Part shown: positions 25,673-61,533 of the stretch, piece after piece
How positions within the stretch are numbered: the stretch's first letter is position 1
Layout: every line of letters starts with the position of its first letter
DNA from: a virus
Lineage: Duplodnaviria; Caudoviricetes
Virus record (IMG/VR): IMGVR_UViG_3300043395_002060
Coordinates: 1 to 61,587 of that record
Direction: 5' to 3' (one strand)
Length of the DNA stretch: 61,587 nucleotides
Made by a program: the position numbers and the translations under genes
Notes under the pieces: model-generated
What the model was told of the DNA's origin: nothing
Database searches by the model: none
The model's input: only the letters and a program-made list of their open reading frames with translations

Positions 25673-25963
25673 TTAACCATCGATACGTTCTGCTAGCTCT
25701 ACTGCAGCCAGTGCATCTTTGTGGGCTGATACAACCCCTTTAACATGCTGATATCCTTTGATATCCAATGCTTTAGCCTCTACTTTATTGGCTTCAAGCT
25801 TCTGAATGAACTTAATAGCGTATTCTTCGTTACCGAATAGCTTTTGAATACCTCTACGTTTGTGGGTAAGCTCGACTAGATTAGTACGTTTCTTACCATC
25901 TTTAGTACGCAGGAACTTCACTTTTGGGGTAATAGTGTAACCTCTTGGGATTTTGTAACTCAT
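25673..25963 (-). CDS. hypothetical basic protein
   Basis: 96-aa ORF beginning MSY. Confidence 0.65.
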   Translation of the reverse strand: MSYKIPRGYTITPKVKFLRTKDGKKRTNLVELTHKRRGIQKLFGNEEYAIKFIQKLEANKVEAKALDIKGYQHVKGVVSAHKDALAAVELAERIDG

Positions 25964-25975
25964 ATCGTTTATGTT

Positions 25976-26512: not shown

Positions 26513-26641
26513 ATTACTTATTTTTAGGTGATTCAAAAATGGTTTTAATTAATGCATAAACTACTAAAACAATGCCTGAAAGAATAATAGCTTCGAAAAT
26601 TGTAATGTGTGTACCCATATAGGTGAATTTAATTTTAATGA

Positions 26642-27007
26642 TTAATGAGCGGCAATTACTGAATCAATAGCCGATTTAGTGAAACCAAACGCTTCTTTCA
26701 ACTCCTTACGAAGTTTAACCTCATTCACATACTTACCAACTGAAACTGAATAGTCAGATAAAATCCTATTCAATGTAATGTTGTCCTGTTTCAACAACTT
26801 AATCAAAGAAACCGCCTCAGCGTATTGTTTCTTCGTTCTATAAGGGAACTGATAACGTTTACCAAAGATATCGGTAAAAGTGATAATCGGAGTACCCGCC
26901 TTAATAACTCTTTCCTTATTAGCCGGAACATTTTTGTACATTCCAAACTTTTCGTAATTCATTGATGTGTAACTCATAACTGATTGATTTAATTGTTCGT
27001 AACTCAT
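26642..27007 (-). CDS. hypothetical early protein
   Basis: 121-aa ORF directly under promoter 27016-27047. Confidence 0.65.
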   Translation of the reverse strand: MSYEQLNQSVMSYTSMNYEKFGMYKNVPANKERVIKAGTPIITFTDIFGKRYQFPYRTKKQYAEAVSLIKLLKQDNITLNRILSDYSVSVGKYVNEVKLRKELKEAFGFTKSAIDSVIAAH

Positions 27008-32676: not shown

Positions 32677-33204
32677 TTAAAAAGGTAATGCTGGGTCTGC
32701 TAATTCTAATAATTTTGTTCTAATCCAAGTTGGTTGATTTAAAAATTCTCTTTTAATCGTAGCTTCCGGCTTTGTTTCAAATACGGATTTCATATGAAGT
32801 TTTATTTCACCATCTTTAGTAGGATTTTTGAATACCGTCAGTTGAGCTTCGTTTAATACATTTTTAGTAGCCCTACATACCCAACTGAAATTATCTTCAG
32901 CTAATGATAAATTTCTACCAACGTAAATGATTTCATAGGTAGCACCTTTGTGTTCAATTTTACCACTCAACTTTTCGGGGTTAGCAAAATGTATTTGTTT
33001 TCTACCATCAACTTTTAGTAATTCCTTTTCTATTTGCAATTTCAAATCGTTATTTGATTTGATTCTATCTATTTCCAACTGCAATTGTTTAGCAGCATCA
33101 ACAGCTGCTGACATTGCAACTGAAGAGCTGATATTAGAATTACTCAAATTAATACCCAACAAACGAGCAAATTCATCCAATGCTAATGAATCTTTAGTTT
33201 CCAT
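32677..33204 (-). CDS. hypothetical protein
   Basis: 175-aa ORF. Confidence 0.6.
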   Translation of the reverse strand: METKDSLALDEFARLLGINLSNSNISSSVAMSAAVDAAKQLQLEIDRIKSNNDLKLQIEKELLKVDGRKQIHFANPEKLSGKIEHKGATYEIIYVGRNLSLAEDNFSWVCRATKNVLNEAQLTVFKNPTKDGEIKLHMKSVFETKPEATIKREFLNQPTWIRTKLLELADPALPF

Positions 33205-34457: not shown

Positions 34458-35621
34458 CTAAAATTTATTGTAAATTGTTTTTAATGTTTGTTTATAAAAA
34501 TTTTCAATAAATATAGTATTATTATTTTTTGTTTCAATATATTTGTAATATAAATCATGCAACGAATTACCACTTAATAAAGTTTCTATTCGTTTACTTA
34601 TATTATTCATTCTGATTACGTCATCTTCAATTGTATCATATTCATGCAGCCAATCATTCATTTCAAAATCAAATCCAAATTTATCTTTTAATAATTTTAA
34701 TGTATTTGGCTTTGATACCATAATAAATGGATTACCCATTCTAATTGCTTTAAACGTTTTTTCACTAATATTATTCCAATCTTTTCTATTACCATCTTTG
34801 TGATAAAATTGAGTTTCCAATATTATTTCAAAGTAAGTATTTAAATAATGAGATATGTTCACATTTGGAGAATAATTTTTTGTTTTTAGTAATTCATTGG
34901 AATCAAAATCGGGCCAATGTGGAACTCTTTCCAATATTTTGAATTTACGATATTCATCTTGCTTATCTTTAGGAACAAATATATCAAAGCAATCTGGCTC
35001 CCAATTCTCATCAGTAGAACTCCATATAAAATTATTTTCTAATAGATTTTTTTCATAAAAATAGTTTAATAGTTGTATTTTATGAAACCTAATGTGTCCT
35101 GATAAAAATAAACCTTTGAATGGTCTGATATGCCGTTTTTCCCATTTATTTATGGTATTAAAACTATTTAGTACATCATTTGATATCAAATTATGTATGG
35201 CATGCCACATATGTTGCTCGTAATATATTATATCGTTTGATACTGATATTAAATTTTTATCTAAAAAATATAATTCTCTATTACATTCTTTTCTACAAAA
35301 ATCATAAACATCGGTTGATATTTCTTGGTTATCATAAGATGATAAATCTACAAATATATTTTTACAATTTGTATCAAATACGTTCTTCAAAACTACTAAA
35401 GCTGCAGGATTTTCGTAAAAAATGTTAGTTGAAAAACTTACAATTATAGAAGTATGAATATCAGCATCAGTATATTCTACCAATTCTATTGGATAATTTT
35501 CCTGATAAAAACTCGTCAATAATTCACTGCAAATATCAAATGGTTTATTGTTTTGAATAATCCATTCGGATTTTAAATCATTAATTGTTTTAACTATACT
35601 AATAAAGCAAACTTTTTTCAT
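34458..35621 (-). CDS. GT10-like putative glycosyltransferase
   Basis: YFEIILET...ISEKTFKAIRMGNPFI. Confidence 0.6.
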   Translation of the reverse strand: MKKVCFISIVKTINDLKSEWIIQNNKPFDICSELLTSFYQENYPIELVEYTDADIHTSIIVSFSTNIFYENPAALVVLKNVFDTNCKNIFVDLSSYDNQEISTDVYDFCRKECNRELYFLDKNLISVSNDIIYYEQHMWHAIHNLISNDVLNSFNTINKWEKRHIRPFKGLFLSGHIRFHKIQLLNYFYEKNLLENNFIWSSTDENWEPDCFDIFVPKDKQDEYRKFKILERVPHWPDFDSNELLKTKNYSPNVNISHYLNTYFEIILETQFYHKDGNRKDWNNISEKTFKAIRMGNPFIMVSKPNTLKLLKDKFGFDFEMNDWLHEYDTIEDDVIRMNNISKRIETLLSGNSLHDLYYKYIETKNNNTIFIENFYKQTLKTIYNKF

Positions 35622-36805
35622 TAAAATTTATTAAATATTTTTGTTAATGAATTGTTATAAAAATTATTAACAAATATTGGATAATTATCTTTTGATTTAA
35701 AATATTCATAATGTAAATCGTGTAAATCAGAATTACTTAAACTCAATATATCTTTAATTTTTGATTGAATTGCTATCATTCTTTTTGAATCATCTTCAAT
35801 AGAATCATATTCGTGTAACCAACCATTCATTTCAAAATCAAATCCATAATCTTCTTTCAAAATATTCAAAATATTAGCTTTACCTAAAAAAACAAATGGA
35901 TGGTCCATTAACAAAGCTTTCAATGTTTTTTCACTTACACTTGCCCAATTGGTTTGAGTGGCGCGCGTACCTCGTAAAAATTTAGTTCTATGATAAAATT
36001 GAGTTTCCGGAATCACTTCAAAATATGTATTGAAATAATGCATATGATTTACCTGAAATGAATAATTGTAGTATTTAAATTTATCATTTAAATCATAATC
36101 ATGCATATTTGGAACTCTTTGTAATATTTTAAATTTACGATATTCCTCTTCATTATGCGCCGGTATAAATTCATTGAATAAACTTGGCTCCCAATTTTCA
36201 TCAGTAGAACTCCACAAAAAATTCTCATCCAATAAATTATTTTCATACAAATAATTTAATAATTGTATTTTGTGAAATCTAATGTGGCCCGATAAAAATA
36301 AACCTTTGTATTGTTTACCAAATTTACTACACCAATTATTTATCTTTTTATATTCCTTTATATAATGTGGAATATACATATCAACGTGAAACGAACTATT
36401 TTCAAAAAACAAAGTATCATCTTCTAATATGAGATTTTTGCTTATAAAATATAATTCTTTATCACATTCATTTCTACAAAAACTATAAAATTCCGGCTCT
36501 ACATCTTGATGGTCGTAAGTTGCCAATTCAATAAATAATTTTTTATAATTTAAATTAAATATTTTTTTAAGATTATCTAAAAATACAATATCATCCATAT
36601 CAATAACTTCTATTACGCATATTGCCGTTGTATCGATATCGATTGAATCGTAATTTTTAAAGTCCAATGGATAACCTTTGGAATACATAGAAGTAATAAC
36701 TTCAGATATGTGTGGTGGTTGATTTGGTCTTAAATCTTCCCAATACCATACGAATTTATCATTGTCTGTTTTACGTTTTAATTTAAAGAAGCAGACTTTT
36801 TTCAT
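35621..36805 (-). CDS. GT10-like putative glycosyltransferase, tandem paralog of 34458..35621
   Basis: shared KGLFLSGHIRFHKIQLLNY and WSSTDENWEP; VSEKTLKA. Confidence 0.6.
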   Translation of the reverse strand: MKKVCFFKLKRKTDNDKFVWYWEDLRPNQPPHISEVITSMYSKGYPLDFKNYDSIDIDTTAICVIEVIDMDDIVFLDNLKKIFNLNYKKLFIELATYDHQDVEPEFYSFCRNECDKELYFISKNLILEDDTLFFENSSFHVDMYIPHYIKEYKKINNWCSKFGKQYKGLFLSGHIRFHKIQLLNYLYENNLLDENFLWSSTDENWEPSLFNEFIPAHNEEEYRKFKILQRVPNMHDYDLNDKFKYYNYSFQVNHMHYFNTYFEVIPETQFYHRTKFLRGTRATQTNWASVSEKTLKALLMDHPFVFLGKANILNILKEDYGFDFEMNGWLHEYDSIEDDSKRMIAIQSKIKDILSLSNSDLHDLHYEYFKSKDNYPIFVNNFYNNSLTKIFNKF

Positions 36806-43021: not shown

Positions 43022-43264
43022 TTATGCTATGATTTTATTTGTGATTCGTAAAATTGTTGCTTCATCTTCTTTGGACAACCTCCAACTATTACCAATTAGT
43101 TTTCTAACATTGGTATCCCATTCATCAGAATTTTCATCATCGGGATGATTACCTATTTGCTTTGGGCAATATCCATCATCGTAAAGTTCATCAGCTAATT
43201 CCTGTTTTTCGTATGAAGATAAACTATATAGAATATCATCAATATCAATATCAATACTTGCCAT
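43022..43264 (-). CDS. hypothetical acidic protein
   Basis: 80-aa ORF. Confidence 0.6.
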   Translation of the reverse strand: MASIDIDIDDILYSLSSYEKQELADELYDDGYCPKQIGNHPDDENSDEWDTNVRKLIGNSWRLSKEDEATILRITNKIIA

Positions 43265-43298
43265 AATTTTATATTTAAAGTTATTTTATCATTAATTA

Positions 43299-43334
43299 AA
43301 AAAACATAGAGCCCCACCAAAGGTGGGGTCTATG
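43299..43334 (-). terminator. intrinsic terminator downstream of AAA ATPase
   Basis: CATAGACCCCACC/GGTGGGGCTCTATG hairpin followed by T-run. Confidence 0.8.
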
Positions 43335-43337
43335 CGG

Positions 43338-43382
43338 CGGGGTGGGTGAGTTATGAGTTATGAGTTATGAGTAACCACCCCG
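43338..43382. repeat. (TGAGTTA)x3+TGAGTAA tandem repeat inside an 8-bp GC stem
   Basis: CGGGGTGG...CCACCCCG enclosing heptamers at 43347-43374. Confidence 0.85.
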
Positions 43383-43389
43383 TATATCA

Positions 43390-44610
43390 TTACCAAACAA
43401 TTTCATCTTTTTGCTCCTCAACTACATTCTCATACAATGTAGAATCGTTTTCAGCTCTCATATACTTTTGAACTAATTGTTTGATGTAAGTTCGTTCTGA
43501 ATCCATACCACCATCTTGCGAATAAAGTGGGAAGATAGCAACCTCAGCGGCCTCAATGATATTGAAACCATCGTAAATCAATCCAGCCATCTCAACAGCG
43601 ATACGAGTCGAAACTGCGGTAGTGATTTTACCAACATCGGATTTGATTTGGTCACGAGTGTGAGCGGCGATTTCAGCGATTGCTTTTAAATCTTCAGAGT
43701 TAGCTTCTGGATATAACATCGAAAGTAATTCGAATTCCTGCTCAGCGTTTAACACATCCACTTCGATAGTTACGAAACGGTCAATCAACGCACGGTCAAG
43801 AACACGTGTCGATGTAAATTCGTTACCGATGTTAGCAGTGGCGATAAAGGTAACACCTTCAGCTACTTTAACAATTGGAGAATCAACAGCCTCATCCAAA
43901 CGTAAGTAACGTTGTCCGGCATCCAACACAGTCATTAAGATGTTCCATGCTTCAGGGTGTGAACGGGATAACTCATCCAATAACACAACCGAATAAGGAG
44001 TCTTAATTGCTTTAACGAAAGCGGATTCGTTGAAGTAAGTACCATCTGCTTTACTGAAGTGGGTATTACCAATTAACGATGCTCTCGGGTCCTGCGTTGC
44101 TCCTAGATTGAAATAGAAGAACGGACGATTAAGAGCTTCAACCAATGCTTTAGCCGCCATAGTTTTACCACTACCAGCGGGTCCGGTCATCATAATGTTT
44201 TTAGCTCTAACCGCTGAACGAAGTAAGTATTTCCACTTCAATTCAGTCATAATAAGATTTTTAGGTTTTAACTTAAATCCATCTTTGTGGATAAAGTCAA
44301 TAACGGCTGTATGGTCGGTTGGATTTTCCACAACAGTCTCAGCCAATTCAGTATTGATTGGTTTAACTAATGCTTCGTTGTATTCATTGATATCAACCAT
44401 ACGGAAAGATTTTTTACCGGCTTTGTTAATGTGCCCACGAATAGCCGAATTAGATTTGTGAGCTTTTTTACGAAGAAACGATGTAACTAATGTTGAATCG
44501 GTTTCAACTTCACCATTGGTATTAACCAAATTAAAACGGCTACCAATGTTTTCAACTTTGTAGATTTCAGATGTGTAACCTACTAACACTTCATTTTTTA
44601 ACTTACTCAT
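43390..44610 (-). CDS. MoxR-family (CbbQ/NorQ/CobS-like) AAA+ ATPase
   Basis: GPAGSGKT Walker A, LLDELSR Walker B, IATAN, LDRALIDRF. Confidence 0.9.
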   Translation of the reverse strand: MSKLKNEVLVGYTSEIYKVENIGSRFNLVNTNGEVETDSTLVTSFLRKKAHKSNSAIRGHINKAGKKSFRMVDINEYNEALVKPINTELAETVVENPTDHTAVIDFIHKDGFKLKPKNLIMTELKWKYLLRSAVRAKNIMMTGPAGSGKTMAAKALVEALNRPFFYFNLGATQDPRASLIGNTHFSKADGTYFNESAFVKAIKTPYSVVLLDELSRSHPEAWNILMTVLDAGQRYLRLDEAVDSPIVKVAEGVTFIATANIGNEFTSTRVLDRALIDRFVTIEVDVLNAEQEFELLSMLYPEANSEDLKAIAEIAAHTRDQIKSDVGKITTAVSTRIAVEMAGLIYDGFNIIEAAEVAIFPLYSQDGGMDSERTYIKQLVQKYMRAENDSTLYENVVEEQKDEIVW

Positions 44611-44657
44611 AACTGTATATTTAAAAGGTTTATAACTAACTAACTCTCAATTGTTCC

Positions 44658-44689
44658 ACAATATACGAAATTTTCCCGAATCCGCCAAA
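44658..44689 (-). promoter_or_regulatory. Bacteroidota-type promoter
   Basis: TTTGG-N19-TATATTGT. Confidence 0.7.
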
Positions 44690-44899
44690 TATTTTATTAA
44701 TTATTTTCAAAAAAAATCAAAATATTTTCAGATATTAACCACAATAATAGGGCTGTAAACTCACAGAAACCCGGTAAATTTCGATTCAATTGTTCAAATA
44801 GGGTAACTACCTTCCCAATCATATTAGTATAATTTAAATACATAACTCATTGATTTATAATACAATATAACTGGCTGATAATCAACCAGTTATAAGGGT

Positions 44900-53548: not shown

Positions 53549-53553
53549 ATGTG

Positions 53554-53638
53554 CAGAGAGTGAGGGATTCGAACCCCCGTTACCTTTCAGTAAAACAGTT
53601 TTCAAGACTGCCGCCATCAACCTCTCGGCCAACTCTCT
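53554..53638 (-). tRNA. tRNA-Ser(TGA)
   Basis: cloverleaf with long variable arm; GCAGT-CTTGAAA-ACTGT. Confidence 0.92.
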
Positions 53639-54716
53639 ATTTATTAATTAAAAGATTAATTTCATTAACCTTATCAGAGTATATATAATCAAATAATTTA
53701 TTTTTATTATTTTTTGCTTTTTTAACTGCTAAATTATATAAATTATCAAATTCATCATCTGAACAATTTTTCATAAATCTACAAAAATTTTTGTAATTTT
53801 CATAATTTATACCTTCAAATTCTTCATTCAATGTATAATAACCTTTATTTTTCAGTTCTTTTACTAAAAAATCATTTGCATTTACATAGAATGGAGTACT
53901 ATACATCAATCCTTTTGTTGTTTTTTCACTTAAAAAGTACACCATATCATATGTGTAATCTAAAGTCTCTAAAACTAAATTAAATTTACATTTGTTATAA
54001 TCTAATGGATTCGAAAAATGTATAGATGCCGGATTTGCTTCAAAGTGAAAATAATCATTTTCATTGAAAGCTTTTTTGTGAAATCTATCTATATTTTCAA
54101 ATTCTTTTACAGAATTAATTCTACCGATTCTATCTTGAGCTTTAGTATATACAAACACTTTATTCAATCTTTCGGTATTAATATTTAAATAGTAATCATT
54201 TGTAAAATTAAATCCAACTTTAATTGCTCCAAATAATAAACCATAATTGATATCAAAAAAGAATTTATCTAAATTTTTATATTCCCATTGAAACCATTTA
54301 GAGTCATCAATTGTTTTTGATGATGAAAAAAAGTATTTTAAATTTTTATATTCGTAAATACTATATGGATTATTATCCGATATAAATTCGCCTGGGTTAT
54401 ACATTATGGAGTAATCAAAATTTGAAAAATCCATTTTACGTTCTAAATGATTTATTATAAATTCATCAGTTCCACTATCGGTAAATACATAATGCACATA
54501 ATTTTCTTTTGAAAGAGAATTAAGAGTTAAAAATAATTTCTGATTATTGAATATATTTTTTATAAACAATAAATAAAAATCATAATCATTTGCATAATAT
54601 ATTACATATTCATCATTATCATTAATTTTTGTTTTATTTTTACATATATTGTATATAAAAAAAGATGCCGAATCTTTTAATCCACAACAAATAATTTTTT
54701 TATTAATGATATCCAT
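53637..54716 (-). CDS. GT10-like putative glycosyltransferase
   Basis: KFNLVLET...YFLSEKTTKGLMYSTPF. Confidence 0.55.
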   Translation of the reverse strand: MDIINKKIICCGLKDSASFFIYNICKNKTKINDNDEYVIYYANDYDFYLLFIKNIFNNQKLFLTLNSLSKENYVHYVFTDSGTDEFIINHLERKMDFSNFDYSIMYNPGEFISDNNPYSIYEYKNLKYFFSSSKTIDDSKWFQWEYKNLDKFFFDINYGLLFGAIKVGFNFTNDYYLNINTERLNKVFVYTKAQDRIGRINSVKEFENIDRFHKKAFNENDYFHFEANPASIHFSNPLDYNKCKFNLVLETLDYTYDMVYFLSEKTTKGLMYSTPFYVNANDFLVKELKNKGYYTLNEEFEGINYENYKNFCRFMKNCSDDEFDNLYNLAVKKAKNNKNKLFDYIYSDKVNEINLLINK

Positions 54717-54720
54717 TGAT

Positions 54721-54951
54721 TTATAATATTCTTCTACTATTTCTTCTTCTAGCTTCTTCAGCTTCCTTATACCAACGAATCCAAGTTAATGAAATATCGA
54801 TAGGAGCTAATACCCAAGCCATCATCATAACCATAATTGTATCCAATTCAGGTGAGTTGCCAGTTGGTCCTTCATCGTAACGATGTTTATACTTTCGAAA
54901 AAGCTGGAACATACAATAAATGATACAAATTACATAATACGTTATAAACAT
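54721..54951 (-). CDS. small membrane protein
   Basis: two hydrophobic segments. Confidence 0.55.
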   Translation of the reverse strand: MFITYYVICIIYCMFQLFRKYKHRYDEGPTGNSPELDTIMVMMMAWVLAPIDISLTWIRWYKEAEEARRRNSRRIL

Positions 54952-54978
54952 AACTTTTGTTTTTAGTGGTTAATAGAT

Positions 54979-55180
54979 TTGAGTTTGTGAGGTTGAATCC
55001 AATTAAAAAGGTTATTCAGGTTTCAATGAGTTTTGATTATATTGACTTGCCGACAAGAGACCCTAATATTGTTGAAATTTGTTAATTATTCATTATCTTA
55101 TTCGTTCATCCGCTATTTTGGCATCATAGTAGAATTGTAAGAATAAACTAATCAATCAGTTTCAAACCCCACTCACTCAA
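54979..55180 (-). ncRNA. candidate ~200-nt structured RNA
   Basis: ends pair: TTGAGT-GA-GTGGGGTTTGAA with TTCAACCTCAC-AA-ACTCAA; no ORF in track. Confidence 0.4.
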
Positions 55181-55185
55181 TATTT

Positions 55186-55614
55186 TTAAATTTGAGTATT
55201 GGAGTTATGAATATCTAATTCATTCTGCAATGCCTCAACTCTATCTTGTAGTTTTGAAACAATTGCTTCAATTTCTACAATATTTAATTCTACTTCTTTT
55301 ACTGAAACGACACTTCCGTATCTTTCATTAATTTTACCTTCTTCCGTTGGAACTTTTTTCAATTCCTTAATCATCCCTTTCAATTCTGCCAATGCGAAGA
55401 TTTTATCATACACCGGTTGGTTTGCTTTATGGATTTGTGCTTTCAATTCTACCAACTCATTTGATAGAGTATGGATTCTGTCTAAAGTAGCACTCATAGA
55501 ATATCTACGAGGATTACCTTCTTCAATTGAGTTATACTTTTTCAAAATCTCAAATTGAGCTTTCAAATCAGTAACCAATTTGTTCTTTTGTTTTAATGCT
55601 TGTTTTACATTCAT
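55186..55614 (-). CDS. DIP1984-like coiled-coil protein
   Basis: QAL..K, NS..EGN, LKAQIHKAN, LDIHN..T pattern. Confidence 0.6.
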   Translation of the reverse strand: MNVKQALKQKNKLVTDLKAQFEILKKYNSIEEGNPRRYSMSATLDRIHTLSNELVELKAQIHKANQPVYDKIFALAELKGMIKELKKVPTEEGKINERYGSVVSVKEVELNIVEIEAIVSKLQDRVEALQNELDIHNSNTQI

Positions 55615-55640
55615 TGTTTTAAATTTTATTGTTTGTTATA

Positions 55641-55672
55641 CAAATATAGTACAATTATTTCAAATTACCAAA
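55641..55672 (-). promoter_or_regulatory. Bacteroidota-type promoter
   Basis: TTTGG-N19-TATATTTG. Confidence 0.8.
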
Positions 55673-55673
55673 T

Positions 55674-55967
55674 TTATTTTATTTTGTTATCATACAAATT
55701 TTGTAATCGATTTATATGTTGATATATTTCATATCTAACTGCATCTTTTAATTCTTCATTTTGAATCAAAACGCCACCCTTATCTTTCCAACCCCAATAC
55801 CAACCACCTTCAGTATTTTGTGATTTAGCTGATATAGAATAATCAATAGTTATGGTAGGTTCATCGGTATGTAGATACTTTTCATCATTCCAACGAATTG
55901 TAGCCCATATACCAACTGTCCCACCATCTCTATATGTATCTATATTGTGAATTAAAATTACACTCAT
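55674..55967 (-). CDS. hypothetical protein
   Basis: DTYRDGGT motif, 97 aa. Confidence 0.6.
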   Translation of the reverse strand: MSVILIHNIDTYRDGGTVGIWATIRWNDEKYLHTDEPTITIDYSISAKSQNTEGGWYWGWKDKGGVLIQNEELKDAVRYEIYQHINRLQNLYDNKIK

Positions 55968-55976
55968 ATATTTATT

Positions 55977-57134
55977 TTAATGTGAATCACCTACATTGTG
56001 TTTTTCAGCGAAGATTAAATAATCAGGGTTGATTACCTTTGCTATTTTCTCTCTACCTTTAGATTGATGTTTGATTACAATACCTTCTTCTGGCACTTTA
56101 GTACCTTTGATGTAGTTATTGAATACATACTTATCTTGCACTTCTTGTGACCATCTACCATAATATAATTGCTCCACATATGGTAATTCCAAAATGTGTT
56201 CGATTAACAACTTTGAATTGATTGGGTCTAAATACTCACCTTCCTCTTTTACATCGAATCCTACGAACTCAATCTCTTTTAACCCATAATCATATCCCTT
56301 TTGAATTCCAGCTCCGTAAATCTCACCATATAAGGTAATGCCATCACCAATTTCAGGCTCCATCGCATCACTCTTAACATAATCCCACAACTTTTGTTTG
56401 ATGTTATATTTCTTTTCGATTTCATACCAAACATTAGTATCATAGAATCCATTAGAGTCTGAACCTTTCTCTACATTATGTGAACCAACTACGAATTCAT
56501 ATTCAATCCATTTGTCTGCTAATCCAATGAACTTTCTAATTTTATCCCATAATGATAATTTGTTTTTCTTAACAATACCATAACGGGCATTAGTTCCGTG
56601 AATCTTACGAGTGATTTCAACTGTGTCCTCTTCGGTAAACATTCCCGGCACATTCTTTAAGTTAGGGAATTTGTAATAGACATGGAAGTTTGGATTGTCT
56701 TGATAACGAATCTTTCTACCTCCTGCTAATTGAACCATTTTAACAGGTGGTTCATATTTGAAGATTCCTAAATGAGCCATCATATCATCACCTTCATTAC
56801 AAAAATATCCAATTCCTTTTGCAAAGAATTTTTTCATTTGTGGTAAACTATCTAATGAAATGATTAAACATTCCGAATATACTCCTCTCAACTTTACAGT
56901 TCGAACTCTACCCCCATTTCTCAAATAATTAGTAACACCCAATTCATCCGATAATGTTTGTGGAATAACTGCATCTGTCGTTGTACATACTACCAATTCA
57001 CCTACTTTATGTGCTCCTTTTTTAACAATACAATTCCAACCACCAATAGTTGCTAATTGAATATTATCAGCACCTTCAATTGGTTTGATTTCTTTAATTC
57101 TTGCTACATAGCAAACTGAATTATTATTTTCCAT
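55977..57134 (-). CDS. RNA ligase (Rnl2/DRB0094-like)
   Basis: N-terminal PIEGADNI OB-like domain; KIHGTN, GEIYG, FD, EGIVIK, KVIN motifs. Confidence 0.92.
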   Translation of the reverse strand: MENNNSVCYVARIKEIKPIEGADNIQLATIGGWNCIVKKGAHKVGELVVCTTTDAVIPQTLSDELGVTNYLRNGGRVRTVKLRGVYSECLIISLDSLPQMKKFFAKGIGYFCNEGDDMMAHLGIFKYEPPVKMVQLAGGRKIRYQDNPNFHVYYKFPNLKNVPGMFTEEDTVEITRKIHGTNARYGIVKKNKLSLWDKIRKFIGLADKWIEYEFVVGSHNVEKGSDSNGFYDTNVWYEIEKKYNIKQKLWDYVKSDAMEPEIGDGITLYGEIYGAGIQKGYDYGLKEIEFVGFDVKEEGEYLDPINSKLLIEHILELPYVEQLYYGRWSQEVQDKYVFNNYIKGTKVPEEGIVIKHQSKGREKIAKVINPDYLIFAEKHNVGDSH

Positions 57135-57139
57135 TTCTT

Positions 57140-57559
57140 TTAAAGTTTAATACTGAATCTATCTTTCATTTGTTCTAACTTTTCTTTTGGAACTCCATGT
57201 TGATTTACACCACCATGTCTATTCTCTACAATCAAAGAGAATACTTTGTATCCATATTTTTCAGCTAATTTGAAATAATCTTCCATTTCCCATTCTTGTG
57301 TGAATGTATTAGATACTACGATGTTTGTATAGAATTGTGCATTTGCTTGATTATCTTGCATAAAGGTTTCAACTCTAAACTTACACCAATTGTGTGCTTT
57401 TGGTAAATCTCTTGCATTGAATTTGTATTCGCCAGTTTCTTCATCAACAAAATACATATCTGCTTCACAAATAACATATTCACTCCACATTGCTTCAGCA
57501 AATGTAGATTTACCAGCTCCTGGCAATCCTCTTAATAATATTAAATTTTTTGGTAACAT
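57140..57559 (-). CDS. P-loop polynucleotide kinase-like protein (AAA_33)
   Basis: RGLPGAGKST, VSNTF, HGVP. Confidence 0.85.
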   Translation of the reverse strand: MLPKNLILLRGLPGAGKSTFAEAMWSEYVICEADMYFVDEETGEYKFNARDLPKAHNWCKFRVETFMQDNQANAQFYTNIVVSNTFTQEWEMEDYFKLAEKYGYKVFSLIVENRHGGVNQHGVPKEKLEQMKDRFSIKL

Positions 57560-57560
57560 A

Positions 57561-58214
57561 TTATCTATAATTTTCTACAATTTCGTGATGGTCAAACTCA
57601 AACATACTTTTGATTGGTTGCTTGTCCATCAAACTTAATACAGTTCTCATTTCAATTGGATACAATGCGTTACCATCACATCCCACATCCATCATCTTAC
57701 CCACACCAATTCTTTTATTGGGTGTAAAGTGAACGTGTCCATGTAAGTGAATTGCACCTCTTGCCATATTATCCCAACTTGCAATTGGAAAGTGCATTAA
57801 TGCAAATCGTTGTTCACCGGCAAAGTGTGTTCCCACATTCCATTTAACATTTAAGTTTAGGTATTTATTTACTGAACTGAATAAAGATTGACAATTTTCT
57901 CTATTATTTTCAATGTGATGGTCGTGGTTACCTGTAATGATGTGAATGTTTTTACAAAAGATTTGATTTCTGAATATTTCAATTTGTTCAAATCCACCAA
58001 AACTCCAATCACCTAAATGAAATAGAATATCATCTTGTCCTACAAACTCGTTGATATTAGCAACTAAATGAGCATTCATTTGTTCTAATGACTTGAATTC
58101 TCTACAAGTTACGGGGTCTGTCCACTTTGTTGTGGCAGAACAAATATTAGCATGGTTGTAGTGGGTATCACTGGTGAACCATAATTTCTGTCCTTTATTT
58201 AATGTTAGTTTCAT
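57561..58214 (-). CDS. calcineurin-like metallophosphoesterase
   Basis: TSDTH, HLGD, GNHD, HFP, HGHVH, DVGCD. Confidence 0.92.
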   Translation of the reverse strand: MKLTLNKGQKLWFTSDTHYNHANICSATTKWTDPVTCREFKSLEQMNAHLVANINEFVGQDDILFHLGDWSFGGFEQIEIFRNQIFCKNIHIITGNHDHHIENNRENCQSLFSSVNKYLNLNVKWNVGTHFAGEQRFALMHFPIASWDNMARGAIHLHGHVHFTPNKRIGVGKMMDVGCDGNALYPIEMRTVLSLMDKQPIKSMFEFDHHEIVENYR

Positions 58215-58813
58215 TTTAAAAAACTTATTATTTTTTCTTTAATTCCACTTTGTTTGATTCCTTCTCTACTCGATGGAGTCAATACAAAGTTATCCAAACC
58301 CCAATCGTAATTGTATTCCATACTATAATGCATCTGAACTTTTCCCATATTCAAATCATCAATAGATACCCAATGTGTAATTTCTGGGTGGTCTACCAAA
58401 TATTGTTTGATTTCTATTGAACGGGTTTGTTCTAAATCCATTTCTCTATTCCACGGAAACCCAGCAGGATATTCTTTAGCATAATGAGTACATTCACCCA
58501 AATTCTTTGTGAATGCTATGGGTTTCTTTTTGATGCCCTGTGATTCATAATATTCACCCATCTCATCAACAGTGGCCCATCTTTTCCAATCAGAAGAGAT
58601 AATAATTTCAGCATCAGTTTCTTCCAATATTTCATTTAATATCTTAATTGCTTTCTTATTAAAATTATCAAATCGAGATAGAACTGGCAAAGATGCTACC
58701 GATTGTGATAACTTTCTACCTGCTTCTCTTTGTTTCTTAAATCTACCACCCCATTCGGTTGCTAAACATATAACACCATCGTGGTCTAAAAATATTACTT
58801 TCATAACTTTCAT
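58211..58813 (-). CDS. HAD-family phosphatase (RNA-repair type)
   Basis: IFLDHDGV, ISSDWK, R..EI..YL, VSIDD. Confidence 0.85.
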   Translation of the reverse strand: MKVMKVIFLDHDGVICLATEWGGRFKKQREAGRKLSQSVASLPVLSRFDNFNKKAIKILNEILEETDAEIIISSDWKRWATVDEMGEYYESQGIKKKPIAFTKNLGECTHYAKEYPAGFPWNREMDLEQTRSIEIKQYLVDHPEITHWVSIDDLNMGKVQMHYSMEYNYDWGLDNFVLTPSSREGIKQSGIKEKIISFLK

Positions 58814-58825
58814 TTTATTAAATTG

Positions 58826-58896
58826 TTACCCGAGCTGGATTCGAACCAACCCTAAATGCACCAAAAACATTTGTGCTACCGCTACACCATCGGGCA
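58826..58896 (-). tRNA. tRNA-Gln(TTG)
   Basis: cloverleaf, loop TT-TTG-GT. Confidence 0.9.
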
Positions 58897-58902
58897 ATTT
58901 TG

Positions 58903-58974
58903 AGCAGATAGTCAGAATCGAACTGACATCTCAGGCTTGGAAGGCTAGAGTAATAACCATTATACGATATCTGC
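58903..58974 (-). tRNA. tRNA-Gly(TCC)
   Basis: cloverleaf, loop CT-TCC-AA, U73; two mismatches in anticodon stem. Confidence 0.85.
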
Positions 58975-59034
58975 ATTTGTAGGTGGGACTAACCTACTTC
59001 AAATGTGTACACCATTCATTATACCGTCCTTTTG

Positions 59035-59108
59035 TGGGCCAGTCTGGGCTCGAACCAGAGACCTACTGATTATGAGTCAGTTGCTCTAACCAACTGAGCT
59101 ACAAGCCC
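59035..59108 (-). tRNA. tRNA with CAT anticodon (Ile2 or Met)
   Basis: cloverleaf, ACTGA-CTCATAA-TCAGT. Confidence 0.9.
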
Positions 59109-59111
59109 GAA

Positions 59112-59159
59112 TATCGTTTATACTAACGATAATTCAATGTATCGTTTATATCAACGATA
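59112..59159. repeat. two copies of TATCGTT-N6-AACGATA palindrome
   Basis: 59112-59131 and 59140-59159 in a tRNA spacer. Confidence 0.75.
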
Positions 59160-59160
59160 G

Positions 59161-59234
59161 TGGAGATAGAGGGATTCGAACCCACGACCCTCTGCGTGCA
59201 AGGCAGATGCTCTAGCCAACTGAGCTATATCCCC
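59161..59234 (-). tRNA. tRNA-Ala(TGC)
   Basis: cloverleaf with G3:U70. Confidence 0.95.
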
Positions 59235-59239
59235 CATTG

Positions 59240-59326
59240 TACCTCGGGCCGGAGTCGAACCGGCACGGACGTTTTCTGTCCAAAGGATTTTAAGTCCTTC
59301 GTGGCTACCAATTACACCACCGAGGC
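59240..59326 (-). tRNA. tRNA-Leu(TAA)
   Basis: cloverleaf with long variable arm. Confidence 0.95.
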
Positions 59327-59331
59327 AACTA

Positions 59332-59799
59332 TTAGATTTTTCTTACTACAACTCCAACTAGCTTTGTATGTTTATCGGTTTCATTAATAAGAATATCTAT
59401 TTTATTTCTGAATCTACTATTCATTAAATCTCTCACATACCAAACTCCACTATACTTTCCGGCATTTTCTAATACAACCTTTTCACCCCATTTAAAATGC
59501 CTTTTCAAATCTCTACTAACTGCTATAATTCTATGTTTCTTTGGATTCCTCATATTGATTTCAAATCCACTAGCGGTTACATTTGGTGTTGAATCACATT
59601 GTTGTTCAACTGCGTTATAAGTTGTTAAGGTTACTTTTCTTTTGAAATCTTTTTTAATTTTCTTTTCAGATTTACTTTCAAAATTACTATTAACTTCTTC
59701 TACTTCAGTTTGCTCCACTTCTTCCACTTTTGGTAAATGTGTATCTATAATGTATAGAATAAAAAAAAGTGTAACATAAGTAATAAATACATTTTTCAT
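59332..59799 (-). CDS. 3D-domain (lytic transglycosylase-like) protein with TM anchor
   Basis: TTYN..CD.TP.VTASG, IAVSRD, VRDLM...KIDIL. Confidence 0.8.
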   Translation of the reverse strand: MKNVFITYVTLFFILYIIDTHLPKVEEVEQTEVEEVNSNFESKSEKKIKKDFKRKVTLTTYNAVEQQCDSTPNVTASGFEINMRNPKKHRIIAVSRDLKRHFKWGEKVVLENAGKYSGVWYVRDLMNSRFRNKIDILINETDKHTKLVGVVVRKI

Positions 59800-59828
59800 A
59801 ACTTTTAAGTTTTAGTGACAATTAATAG

Positions 59829-59902
<74 letters not shown>

Positions 59903-59907
59903 ATATG

Positions 59908-59981
59908 CGGGATGTACGGGATTCGAACCCGTGACCTCCACCGTGACAGGGTGGCATTGTAACCAACTCTACTAACATCCC
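59908..59981 (-). tRNA. tRNA-Asp(GTC)
   Basis: cloverleaf. Confidence 0.93.
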
Positions 59982-59986
59982 AATTG

Positions 59987-60060
59987 AGCCTCCGGTCGGA
60001 TTCGAACCAACGACCACCTGATTACAAATCAGGAGCTCTGGCCAGCTGAGCTACGGAGGC
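59987..60060 (-). tRNA. tRNA-Thr(TGT)
   Basis: cloverleaf. Confidence 0.95.
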
Positions 60061-60065
60061 AATTG

Positions 60066-60137
60066 TACTCGGTACGGGATTCGAACCCGTGCTACATCCG
60101 TGAAAGGGATGCGACCTAACCTCTAGTCGAACCGAGC
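60066..60137 (-). tRNA. tRNA-Glu(TTC)
   Basis: cloverleaf. Confidence 0.93.
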
Positions 60138-60171
60138 GTTTACATATTATCCATTATTTCAAAGAACATTA

Positions 60172-60203
60172 CAAATATACGAAAACTTTTCCATATATCC
60201 TAA
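60172..60203 (-). promoter_or_regulatory. Bacteroidota-type promoter driving the tRNA array
   Basis: TTAGG-N19-TATATTTG. Confidence 0.75.
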
Positions 60204-60210
60204 TTCTATT

Positions 60211-60798
60211 TTACATTTTTTTAAAGTGTATGTTCACTTCATTTTTCGGGCATCCACCAATTGAGTTATATTTCCAATCAATATCATATCCGTTTTTATC
60301 AAAGAAAGCAACAAATTCAGAAAATGATGGCTGATTATCATATAATTTCCATTCAGTATCTTCCGAAAGACTTTCACATATTCCTTCTTTAACTATTCCA
60401 ATCTTATTTCCAAACCCATTCAATACATCTAAATCACTTCCTTGCGTATCTATTGAAACAAACTCTATTTCATCAATACCAATTTCTTCAATAAAGGTAT
60501 CCATTCTAACACATTCTACTTCAATTTTGTTCATTTCACCCATAGTTGGTCCATTACCCCAATCCATTAAACTAGAACAACTATCCAAAGAACATATATT
60601 AAATGGAACTAATCCATTAATGTTTGAAACAGCTTTTTCAAAGATAATATAATTTTTTGGTATTTCAAACTTATTGTAATTGGATTTTACGATTTCTGAA
60701 TTTGGTTCAAAAGCGTAAACAACTAATGATTCATCAGCTTTTGCTTCTTCCAAAAATTCCATCGATACGTGTAATCCAATTACAATTTTTATTCTCAT
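60211..60798 (-). CDS. FkbM-family methyltransferase
   Basis: VYAFEPN, AVS, SSL, VECVRMD, IDTQGSDLDVL.G. Confidence 0.88.
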   Translation of the reverse strand: MRIKIVIGLHVSMEFLEEAKADESLVVYAFEPNSEIVKSNYNKFEIPKNYIIFEKAVSNINGLVPFNICSLDSCSSLMDWGNGPTMGEMNKIEVECVRMDTFIEEIGIDEIEFVSIDTQGSDLDVLNGFGNKIGIVKEGICESLSEDTEWKLYDNQPSFSEFVAFFDKNGYDIDWKYNSIGGCPKNEVNIHFKKM

Positions 60799-61250
60799 AC
60801 CTTTACTAAATGGTCGGCACAATATGTTGCAATTGGGCCTAATGATTTGTATCTAACTTTATAACCCATACCTTCAACCATACCAACAGCTTGTCTGAAC
60901 ACTTCGTTTGATTTGAATTTAGGGTCTGGATTAATATCAATATCAATCCATCTCACTTTTGGTAATCCAGCTTCTTTCATTGCTTCAGCAACTTCAACTG
61001 AATACCAAACTTCATTTAATAAACGAGTAGAACGAGTCCATTCCCTTTTAGTTGTCCACTTATTAAATAAAACATGTGCTCCTTTTCCAACATCATATAA
61101 AGCAACTACAATAGCATATATGGTTTTATCTGAAAAGTTTTGTGAATCGCAACCAATTAGTATTTCTGCGTTTGGTTTTGTTTCCAACCATTCACCAACA
61201 TAATTCATCAAATCAACTTTCTGTCCATCGTGTAGCCGTTTGTATTCCAT
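60795..61250 (-). CDS. RNase H-like YkuK (DUF458) family protein
   Basis: IGCDSQ, GKGAH, RLLNEVWYS, IDIN, ADH. Confidence 0.85.
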   Translation of the reverse strand: MEYKRLHDGQKVDLMNYVGEWLETKPNAEILIGCDSQNFSDKTIYAIVVALYDVGKGAHVLFNKWTTKREWTRSTRLLNEVWYSVEVAEAMKEAGLPKVRWIDIDINPDPKFKSNEVFRQAVGMVEGMGYKVRYKSLGPIATYCADHLVKV

Positions 61251-61287
61251 AGCTGTTTTATTTTATATATAAACAATTTCGTTTTTG

Positions 61288-61361
61288 TGTCCATAGAAAG
61301 ATTCGAACTTTCACAAACTGGGTTCTAAAGCCAGTGCGGTTACCAATTACGCCATACGGAC
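61288..61361 (-). tRNA. tRNA-Leu(TAG) with short variable region
   Basis: cloverleaf, loop TT-TAG-AA, A73, 5-nt variable region. Confidence 0.75.
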
Positions 61362-61369
61362 ATTTTCAG

Positions 61370-61455
61370 TAGAGAGTGAGGGGCTCGAACCCTCGCGACT
61401 TTAACATCCTAACGATTTAGCAAACCGTCCCCTTCACCAACTTGGGTAACTCTCT
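61370..61455 (-). tRNA. tRNA-Ser(GCT)
   Basis: cloverleaf with long variable arm. Confidence 0.9.
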
Positions 61456-61461
61456 ATTTGG

Positions 61462-61533
61462 GGTGAATAATGGGATTCGAACCCATACTAACAGAACCAC
61501 AATCTGTCGTGCTACCCTTACACAATAAACACC
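61462..61533 (-). tRNA. tRNA-His(GTG)
   Basis: cloverleaf with G-1 and C73. Confidence 0.9.

Follow-up and report, generated by a model that had tools for sequence, protein, structure and literature searches.

The DNA studied here, called the window, is the whole of the IMG/VR virus record IMGVR_UViG_3300043395_002060, with 61,587 bases and an estimated completeness of 32%. Its minus strand carries a gene for an AAA+ ATPase (AAA in the following), which ends in a UAA stop codon at 43392-43390. The protein matched the Pfam families AAA_5 (2.5e-18) and CbbQ_C, the CbbQ/NirQ/NorQ C-terminal domain (2.5e-6), as well as PHROG 249, 'porphyrin biosynthesis' (6.1e-27), and an NCBIfam search gave no model at or above its cut-off. 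The subject of this report is a hairpin in this gene's 3' untranslated region (3'UTR), whose loop is complementary to the start of the same gene. An earlier note on this DNA had taken the hairpin for a multivalent small RNA (sRNA) that shuts off a set of early genes, or for a decoy array for a TGAGTTA-binding protein. The features of the locus are listed in Table 1.

The AAA stop codon is followed by 8 unpaired bases, an 8-bp stem, a 29-nt loop, 3 bases, a 13-bp terminator hairpin and seven U residues. The 5' arm of the first stem, called the presentation stem here, starts 9 nt past the stop codon, and the loop spans 16-44 nt past it. Seven of the stem pairs are G-C or C-G and one is U-A. Inspection of both strands and of the predicted fold showed the GC stem, the repeat loop and the terminator just as they had been described. 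ViennaRNA gave exactly this two-hairpin structure at -36.5 kcal/mol (z -3.49), and 2 of 200 shuffled sequences were as stable. The plus strand folds even better on paper, but the U tract and the genes are found only on the minus strand. With a GC-rich stem and a U tract directly after it, the segment 43334-43298 has the form of an intrinsic (Rho-independent) terminator. Tandem Repeats Finder (TRF) reported a repeat at 43347-43372 with a period of 7, 3.7 copies and a 100% match. The 3'UTR also has the layout of an sRNA body: a single-stranded seed that is conserved, then a terminator hairpin, then a U tail.

Table 1. Positions of the AAA gene, its 3'UTR elements and the neighbouring features in the window.
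Feature	Position	Strand	Basis or remark
5' arm of presentation stem, CGGGGUGG	43375..43382	minus	fold
3' arm of presentation stem, CCACCCCG	43338..43345	minus	fold
29-nt loop UUACUCAUAACUCAUAACUCAUAACUCAC, UUACUCA(UAACUCA)3C	43346..43374	minus	TRF, conservation
Terminator hairpin CAUAGACCCCACC-UUU-GGUGGGG(C)UCUAUG, 13 bp, one bulge, 3-nt loop	43305..43334	minus	fold; inner stem by terminator scan
U7 tract of the intrinsic terminator	43298..43304	minus	
AAA+ ATPase gene, MoxR/CbbQ/CobS-like, 406 amino acids (aa)	43390..44610	minus	Pfam, PHROG
AAA start region AGUUAUGAGUAA, -4 to +8	44603..44614	minus	perfect 12-nt complement of loop 43363-43374
Leader box GAGAGUUA (44648-44641) and AGUUAU (44637-44632)	44632..44648	minus	each able to pair with later units of the loop over 6 nt
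Promoter-like site TTGGCG-N17-TATATT (Bacteroidota-style TTTGG ... TAnnTTTG)	44660..44688	minus	motif prediction
Small open reading frame (ORF), 41 aa, LPGFCE motif, between VWA and AAA genes	44697..44822	minus	
VWA/CobT-like partner gene, 720 aa	44900..47062	minus	sub-threshold CobT/VWA-type hits only

The start region (-40 to +15) of each of the 108 genes in the window was compared with the segment past the stop codon of each gene. AAA alone matched itself over at least 10 nt; its match, AGTTATGAGTAA, covers 12 nt across the AUG (44614-44603), and the next best own-gene match was 9 nt. Among the non-cognate pairs of start and post-stop segments, 4 of 11556 reached 12 nt. Two more matches of 6 nt each lie in the AAA leader (44646-44641 and 44637-44632) and are ordered for antiparallel pairing with the later loop units. 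In the minimum free energy (MFE) fold of the whole 1362-nt mRNA, the segments 44646-44641, 44637-44632 and 44614-44603 were predicted to pair with 43348-43353, 43356-43361 and 43363-43374, respectively, so that the three long-range helices would occupy 24 of the 29 loop nucleotides. Cofolding of leader and 3'UTR gave a gain of -6.2 kcal/mol in the window, and of -5.4 and -8.9 kcal/mol in G001 and G002, the genomes of two relatives; only 1-3.5% of shuffled leaders equalled this gain. The AAA leader and 3'UTR are complementary beyond chance, as is expected of a 5'UTR-3'UTR interaction within one mRNA. Moreover, the promoter-like site at 44688-44660 would give a monocistronic AAA mRNA that has the leader box near its 5' end. 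The leader and loop segments are both bracketed by this site and by the terminator at 43334-43298, the two boundaries being predicted from motifs.

The same two hairpins were found in eleven close relatives (L003 from the viral contigs, L091-L098 and L101 from the metagenome contigs), and a different, shorter hairpin stands at that place in L004 (71% identity) and L099 (79%). Eight 3'UTRs were aligned, from the window, L003, L091, L092, L094, L097, L098 and L101 (86-94% protein identity); L093, L095 and L096 were omitted, as they share the 3'UTR of L092 exactly. All 26 columns of the loop core were invariant, and the bases ahead of the stem and between the hairpins were variable. Invariant sites in the same genomes amounted to 45% of four-fold sites and 86% of codon positions 1 and 2, as counted in seven of the eight sequences, L101 having no gene start. 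Pairing was kept in all 160 stem cells of the alignment (56/56 in the presentation helix and 104/104 in the terminator), with one compensatory pair in each helix; that of the presentation stem is a change from U-A to C-G in L097. Judged by this alignment, the loop is a constrained sequence under strong purifying selection and not a free-running microsatellite.

A neutral heptanucleotide microsatellite in an accessory hairpin, with start matches that arise by chance in AT-rich DNA, would in principle explain the repeat. The extra A that gives the perfect 7-nt period is found in the window only, the other seven sequences having a 1-nt deletion such as slippage might give, and short complementary words are common in DNA of 31% GC. 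However, the copy number was the same in all eight sequences apart from this 1-nt indel, so the locus does not behave as a variable-number tandem repeat. The invariance of the core against the 45% of four-fold sites, the chance rate of a 12-nt match (4/11556) and the recurrence of the own-gene match in the family make such an origin very improbable.

The repetition is better understood from the targets. The loop of the close relatives has the sequence (U/A)AUUACUCAUAACUCAUACUCAUAACUCUC. Of this, the 3' part (AUAACUCUC) is complementary to the leader box GAGAGUUA(U) over 8-9 nt, and the middle and 5' part to the start region (A)GAGUUAUGAG(UA) over 11-13 nt. The loop is repetitive because leader box and start region share a common GAGUUA core. 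For annotation this means that a striking loop repeat need not be a multi-target regulator, since a repeat arises where two cis targets resemble each other. The leader box itself is conserved in the relatives. A very different stem (GGGUAUAGUAUGG/CCAUACAUACCC) is found in L004, and its loop, UAACUCUCUCAAUAUAACUC, contains a perfect 12-nt complement of the L004 leader box, or 16 bp including G-U.

The relation was also found across the wider gene family. The search of viral contigs gave 283 relatives, of which 80 were kept, and these were reduced to 45 non-redundant loci. Exact complementarity of 10-14 nt between a gene's own 5' and 3' segments occurred in 15 of the 45 cognate pairs, compared with 67 of 1980 non-cognate pairs (Mann-Whitney p 9e-13). 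Neighbouring genes at the same loci reached at least 10 nt in only 3 of 241 cases (Fisher p 5e-11). By an ungapped-helix score, 18 of the 45 loci exceeded the 95th percentile of the non-cognate pairs, compared with 4 of 45 when the 3' segment was read backwards; the highest score in the set was that of L004. The 18 strong cases have about 13 mutually unrelated arm sequences, e.g., CACTACATGA, GAGGTTACCA, AATCACCAAATTA and ACCTATATAACAAT. The 3' arm begins at most 12 nt past the stop codon in 15 of them, the three exceptions being the hairpin-loop clade of the window, and the 5' arm lies inside -21 to +7 of the AUG in 14.

In whole contigs of other lineages, the own gene was the best start match of the post-stop segment in three of four cases, among 113-261 ORFs. 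Own and next-best matches in these three contigs were 14 vs 9, 10 vs 8 and 13 vs 10 nt, and the k-mer was present once forward and once reverse. The exact-word test missed the fourth contig because its helix contains a G-U pair. From metagenome contigs, in which at least 559 relatives were counted, a second sample added 16 new representatives, mostly similar sequences of one subfamily, of which 5 reached at least 9 nt, against 24 of 240 non-cognate pairs (p 0.0025). By sequence comparison, the pairing has been kept in evolution through changes on both sides. Loop and start regions do not vary independently in the relatives, which was a point raised by the earlier note: the post-stop segment follows the start or leader of its own gene.

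Structure, conservation, complementarity, own-gene specificity and recurrence in the family with different sequences all point in one direction. We consider the hairpin to be a self-directed 3'UTR anti-start element of AAA's own mRNA, with a probability of about 60%. Several results weigh against this reading. The local 8-bp stem competes with the long-range pairing in the folding model, and the predicted net gain is modest. In the whole-mRNA MFE folds, calculated for 33 of the 45 loci, at least 8 leader/post-stop pairs were formed in 20/33 real and 16/33 reversed 3'UTRs, which does not discriminate. The scores of 27 of the 45 representatives were not above the 95th percentile of non-cognate helix scores, and the start codon of each relative was set mechanically at the in-frame ATG lying furthest upstream, a choice that may be wrong at some loci. 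A test of the tolerance of G-U pairs on the sense strand relative to A-C pairs on the antisense strand was marginal, with 17 loci sense-better, 10 antisense-better and 18 equal (p 0.05). In one subclade (L005-L007 and L100), the leader box is kept and a short unrelated hairpin loop follows the stop codon. The RNA-library contigs show the AAA gene in three metatranscriptomes and tell nothing beyond presence. Finally, the loop matches other starts over 9-12 nt and the leader boxes of six other genes in G002, which leaves action in trans as a minority possibility.

The other start sites were weighed as targets of a trans-acting, multivalent 3'UTR-derived sRNA that would repress other (early) genes with AUGAGUUA starts, or with GAGAGUUA leaders in the relatives. 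All five loop complementarities named in the earlier note exist; those outside AAA are TATGAGTTAT at 47063-47054 and at 26513, TATGAGTTA at 25964 and ATGAGTTA at 27007. Its four genes beginning with Met-Ser-Tyr were likewise found, and a count of ATGAGTTA gave 12 copies, compared with 3.84 ± 2.16 expected (1 of 100 shuffles reached 12), two of the copies being the repeat itself. The loop matched 4 of 108 starts in the window and 6 of 116 in G001 over at least 10 nt, compared with 0.44 and 0.84 in column-preserving shuffles. The small genes of one cluster (26977, 26512 and 25963), unrelated and not paralogs, all start with AUGAGUUA, the G002 loop matches its six other leader boxes over 8-10 nt, and a hairpin followed by a terminator is a typical sRNA body.

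These matches are, however, largely explained by the start context of the clade. The other loop matches of 8-10 nt land on AGTTATGAGT, which is among the commonest start contexts of the clade, and (CATAACT)n ranked 1-3 of 256 CAU-containing heptamer repeats for start matches in the window, G001 and G002. G002 has the most such starts (18/128 at 8 nt or more), yet its loop has no CAU, which shows that the preference for AGTTATGAGT is independent of the loop. Since the loop unit is antisense to AGTTATG, a start context preferred by the clade, extra matches are expected whether or not the loop acts there. Furthermore, where small-gene starts are orthologous, their upstream flanks have not retained the complementarity (12 nt in the window and 9 nt in G001). 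The own gene is always the best match in the window and in G002, and elsewhere in the family it is the only one. We regard a trans-acting regulator of this kind as an unlikely, if credible, alternative; in G002 it would work by way of the leader box that several genes have in common. Of the multivalent shut-off of early genes, the part that stood is that the loop is antisense to start regions and has been selected; a set of early genes as the main target did not, for the strongest and only family-wide partner is AAA's own mRNA. The earlier observation is real and more than chance, and its interpretation is right in kind and wrong in the main target.

Two further candidates around these starts were rejected. 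A search for paralogy among the Met-Ser-Tyr genes gave no significant similarity among them. ATGAGTTA is strand-biased in the relatives (12 vs 1 and 13 vs 2), mostly as out-of-frame coding words (xAT GAG TTA), and called starts account for just 2 of the 12 and 2 of the 13 copies. The ORF called from 27007 begins 9 nt after a promoter-like -7 box. A likelier start is 26977, where an in-frame AUG (context AGUUAUGAGUUA) also opens with Met-Ser-Tyr and carries the window's only other 12-nt loop complement.

A protein-binding array for TGAGTTA/GAGAGTTA on DNA or RNA was also weighed, in which the leader boxes would serve as operators and the loop as a decoy or sink. The GAGAGTTA box stands at a fixed promoter-proximal position in several genes, and it persists in L005-L007 and L100 without an antisense loop, so the box has a function of its own. 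On the transcribed strand, however, the 3' copies are without exception reverse complements of those in the leaders. In each of G001 and G002, GAGAGTTA lies on the opposite strand nowhere but in the loop, and the copies are displayed between covarying stems. Other lineages pair arbitrary sequences on start and stop codons, and the 7-bp repeat is not helically phased. With inverted partners, display in a hairpin loop and arbitrary sequences in other lineages, the decoy proposed earlier fits poorly, and we hold it to be improbable.

The unit CUCAUAA equals the anticodon loop of the phage tRNA-Met(CAU) at 59034-59108 on the minus strand, and the phage invests in tRNAs, with 13 in the window. The loop might on this ground mimic a CAU anticodon loop, as a decoy for an enzyme that reads such a loop, e.g., an anticodon nuclease. 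However, this is a post hoc idea, no stem closes the units in the way of an anticodon loop, and the L004 loop, though it has no CAU, is still antisense to the L004 leader. The identity of CUCAUAA is automatic if the UUAUGAG start context complements the initiator anticodon loop, as the 'extended codon-anticodon' idea has it, a phrase that was absent from the papers listed by one literature search. We find a decoy of this type hardly credible.

For the self-directed element, the following course of events is proposed. The GC-rich stem would keep the 29-nt single-stranded loop open in the AAA 3'UTR, and the loop units would pair with the own start (12 bp across the AUG) and with the two leader segments (6 + 6 bp). 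We infer pairing at the RNA level, by which the start site would be masked, either within one molecule or through a 3'UTR released as an sRNA that acts on its parent mRNA. Masking would limit or gate translation, and it may expose the duplex to RNases. An alternative outcome would be stabilisation of the mRNA, as described for hbs (PMC5737220).

A more speculative extension is a closed-loop phage mRNA, in which the terminating ribosome melts the start-masking helix and each termination licenses one initiation. Because the anti-start segment follows the stop codon directly (by 0-12 nt in 15 of the 18 strong cases, and here in a hairpin that begins 9 nt past it), a terminating ribosome would have to melt the helix. 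The ribosome load set during transcription would then stay constant, and an untranslated mRNA would lock and be cleared. This rule would be conserved in at least 13 sequence-unrelated lineages of one ATPase gene. We consider this extension rather unlikely.

To our knowledge, 5'/3'UTR interactions within one bacterial mRNA amount to a handful of single-species cases. Anti-RBS sequences, which are complementary to the ribosome-binding site (RBS) and lie hundreds of nucleotides downstream of it, have been described to pair with the RBS, inhibit initiation and promote decay, and were reported to be depleted from genes (PMC12697547); the present element differs in being conserved and placed just past the stop codon. 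In icaR of Staphylococcus aureus, a 3'UTR motif likewise pairs with the ribosome-binding region of the same mRNA, which blocks initiation and creates an RNase III substrate. That motif is an anti-Shine-Dalgarno UCCCCUG in a long 3'UTR (over 100 nt) (PMC3868564), whereas no Shine-Dalgarno sequence is involved here. The target in AAA is instead the AUG with its flanks and the leader, the element sits in a hairpin loop 16-44 nt past the stop codon, and across a large phage gene family the relation comes back with other sequences. Between orthologs, the functional 3'UTRs of bacteria are described as mostly not conserved (PMC7821165).

In the monocistronic hbs mRNA of Bacillus subtilis, a long-range helix of similar length (14 bp) joins leader and 3'UTR; that helix protects the leader from RNase Y and leaves the start codon unmasked (PMC5737220). 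In hok, tac and fbi pairing joins the 5' end to the 3' end, and the full-length mRNA is untranslatable until 3' processing (PMC9841398). In contrast, hok encodes a small type I toxin and has an antisense RNA as its partner, and here the gene encodes a 406-aa ATPase with no antisense partner seen. AAA is not a hok-like type I toxin, since its product is an AAA_5 ATPase and the antisense ORFs have 3-34 codons. OppZ and CarZ of Vibrio cholerae are RNAs from an operon's 3' end, with a seed followed by a terminator, that pair with the starts of their own transcript. They are autoregulatory 3'UTR-derived sRNAs (PMC7821165), whereas the present element is known from sequence alone.

A literature search found no description of this element, which is not proof that none exists, and the family-wide 5'/3' complementarity appears to be undescribed. 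An uncultivated aquatic phage gene family keeps this relation through many complete sequence changes, which is natural compensatory-mutation evidence at a scale beyond icaR or hbs. In addition, the gating of translation in hosts whose initiation uses no Shine-Dalgarno sequence can be studied in this family as a defined system, and the stop-adjacent position makes a termination-coupled mechanism directly testable.

Contigs from three RNA runs and one DNA run gave further detail at the locus. A contig of 673 nt from an RNA library (depth 24.6) spans 43347-43995. Its remaining 24 letters, which from their look we take to be sequencing adapter, place a fragment end at the 3' edge of the loop (43347). 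The flanking stems may have caused this end through an effect on priming or reverse transcription, or it may mark a processing site, and the single run is proof of neither. In a DNA run, one contig was identical to the window over 43029-43515, and the same run held a minor variant with two extra letters behind 43372.

An antisense small ORF starting from the inverted AUG was considered and rejected, as a whole ATG was present in the 5' arm of only 5 of the 20 representatives with at least 9 nt; the antisense ORFs in these five have 3, 6, 11, 15 and 34 codons and are inconsistent. In several distant lineages (L046-L048, L067, L071 and L076), AAUCACCAA stands in the leader and UUGGUGAUU past the stop codon. 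The leader word AAUCACCAA presumably resembles part of the 3' tail of 16S rRNA.

Upstream of AAA lies a putative VWA gene, and we call the two, by sequence, a MoxR/CobS-like and VWA/CobT-like pair. The VWA gene has an upstream promoter-like site of the same architecture (47131-47103) and a leader box GAGAGUUA at 47091-47084, and at its start, UAUGAGUUAU (47063-47054), there is a 10-nt match to the loop. These matches make it a possible secondary target of the loop. The hairpin of 13 bp after the VWA stop codon (44866-44894) has a T-rich tail, though a weak one, and may act as a partial terminator; the AAA gene would then also be reachable by read-through. The 41-aa LPGFCE ORF at 44697-44822 has a hydrophobic tail and is kept in close relatives, and a search for its family found none. 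Its leader contains AUGAGUUAUG (44850-44841), a 10-nt loop complement.

Leader sequences recurred at some other genes as well. A leader and start, ataaacgatATGAGTTAC, precedes non-orthologous small genes in the window (25964-25940) and in G001 (about 32995-33020). The window gene at 25963 is the ortholog of the G001 gene at 34561, and the G001 gene at 33013 is that of the window gene at 26977. The shared ataaacgatATGAGTTAC suggests module shuffling at a conserved gene boundary. In G002 (L087-L090), some of the promoters are followed by a conserved leader element, GGTATTGAGTTnAGAGAGTTATTAAT, e.g., at 36534, 38425, 47479, 48673, 61604 and 62352. Six of the seven coding-strand GAGAGTTA copies in G002 lie 27-33 nt upstream of a start, the genes being small and unannotated, and a Pfam search of five G002 leader-box genes gave nothing informative.

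The GC content of the window is 30.7%, and its ORFs of at least 50 aa number 106 on the minus strand and 27 on the plus strand. The 13 tRNA genes, all on the minus strand, lie at 53553-61532; an Rfam scan of the window at the gathering score matched only these tRNAs and none at 43.3 kb. Gene starts in the window, and likewise in G001 and G002, have no Shine-Dalgarno sequence. U stands at -1 in 58% of the window starts and A at +4 in 56%, with G enriched at -3; across the three genomes the ranges were 58-62% and 56-62%, respectively. Promoter-like sites of the form TTTGG-N17-19-TATATTTG recur in the window. We take these TTTGG ... TAnnTTTG sites to be of the Bacteroidota type, and the host is probably of this group.

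A search of GenBank phages gave only two records with relatives of the AAA gene at E 1e-40 or better, one from Microcystis phage Mel-JY01 (52% identity) and one from an uncultured phage. The AAA relative of Mel-JY01 is longer, and the next gene begins 20 nt past its stop codon. At the DNA level, GenBank phages gave only short matches, to Polaribacter phages and one Microcystis phage. Near-identical DNA was found in metagenome runs of freshwater, reservoir, estuary and drinking water. The runs that carry near-identical sequence, DNA and RNA together, come from 14 studies and include six RNA-library runs, which carry it in part.

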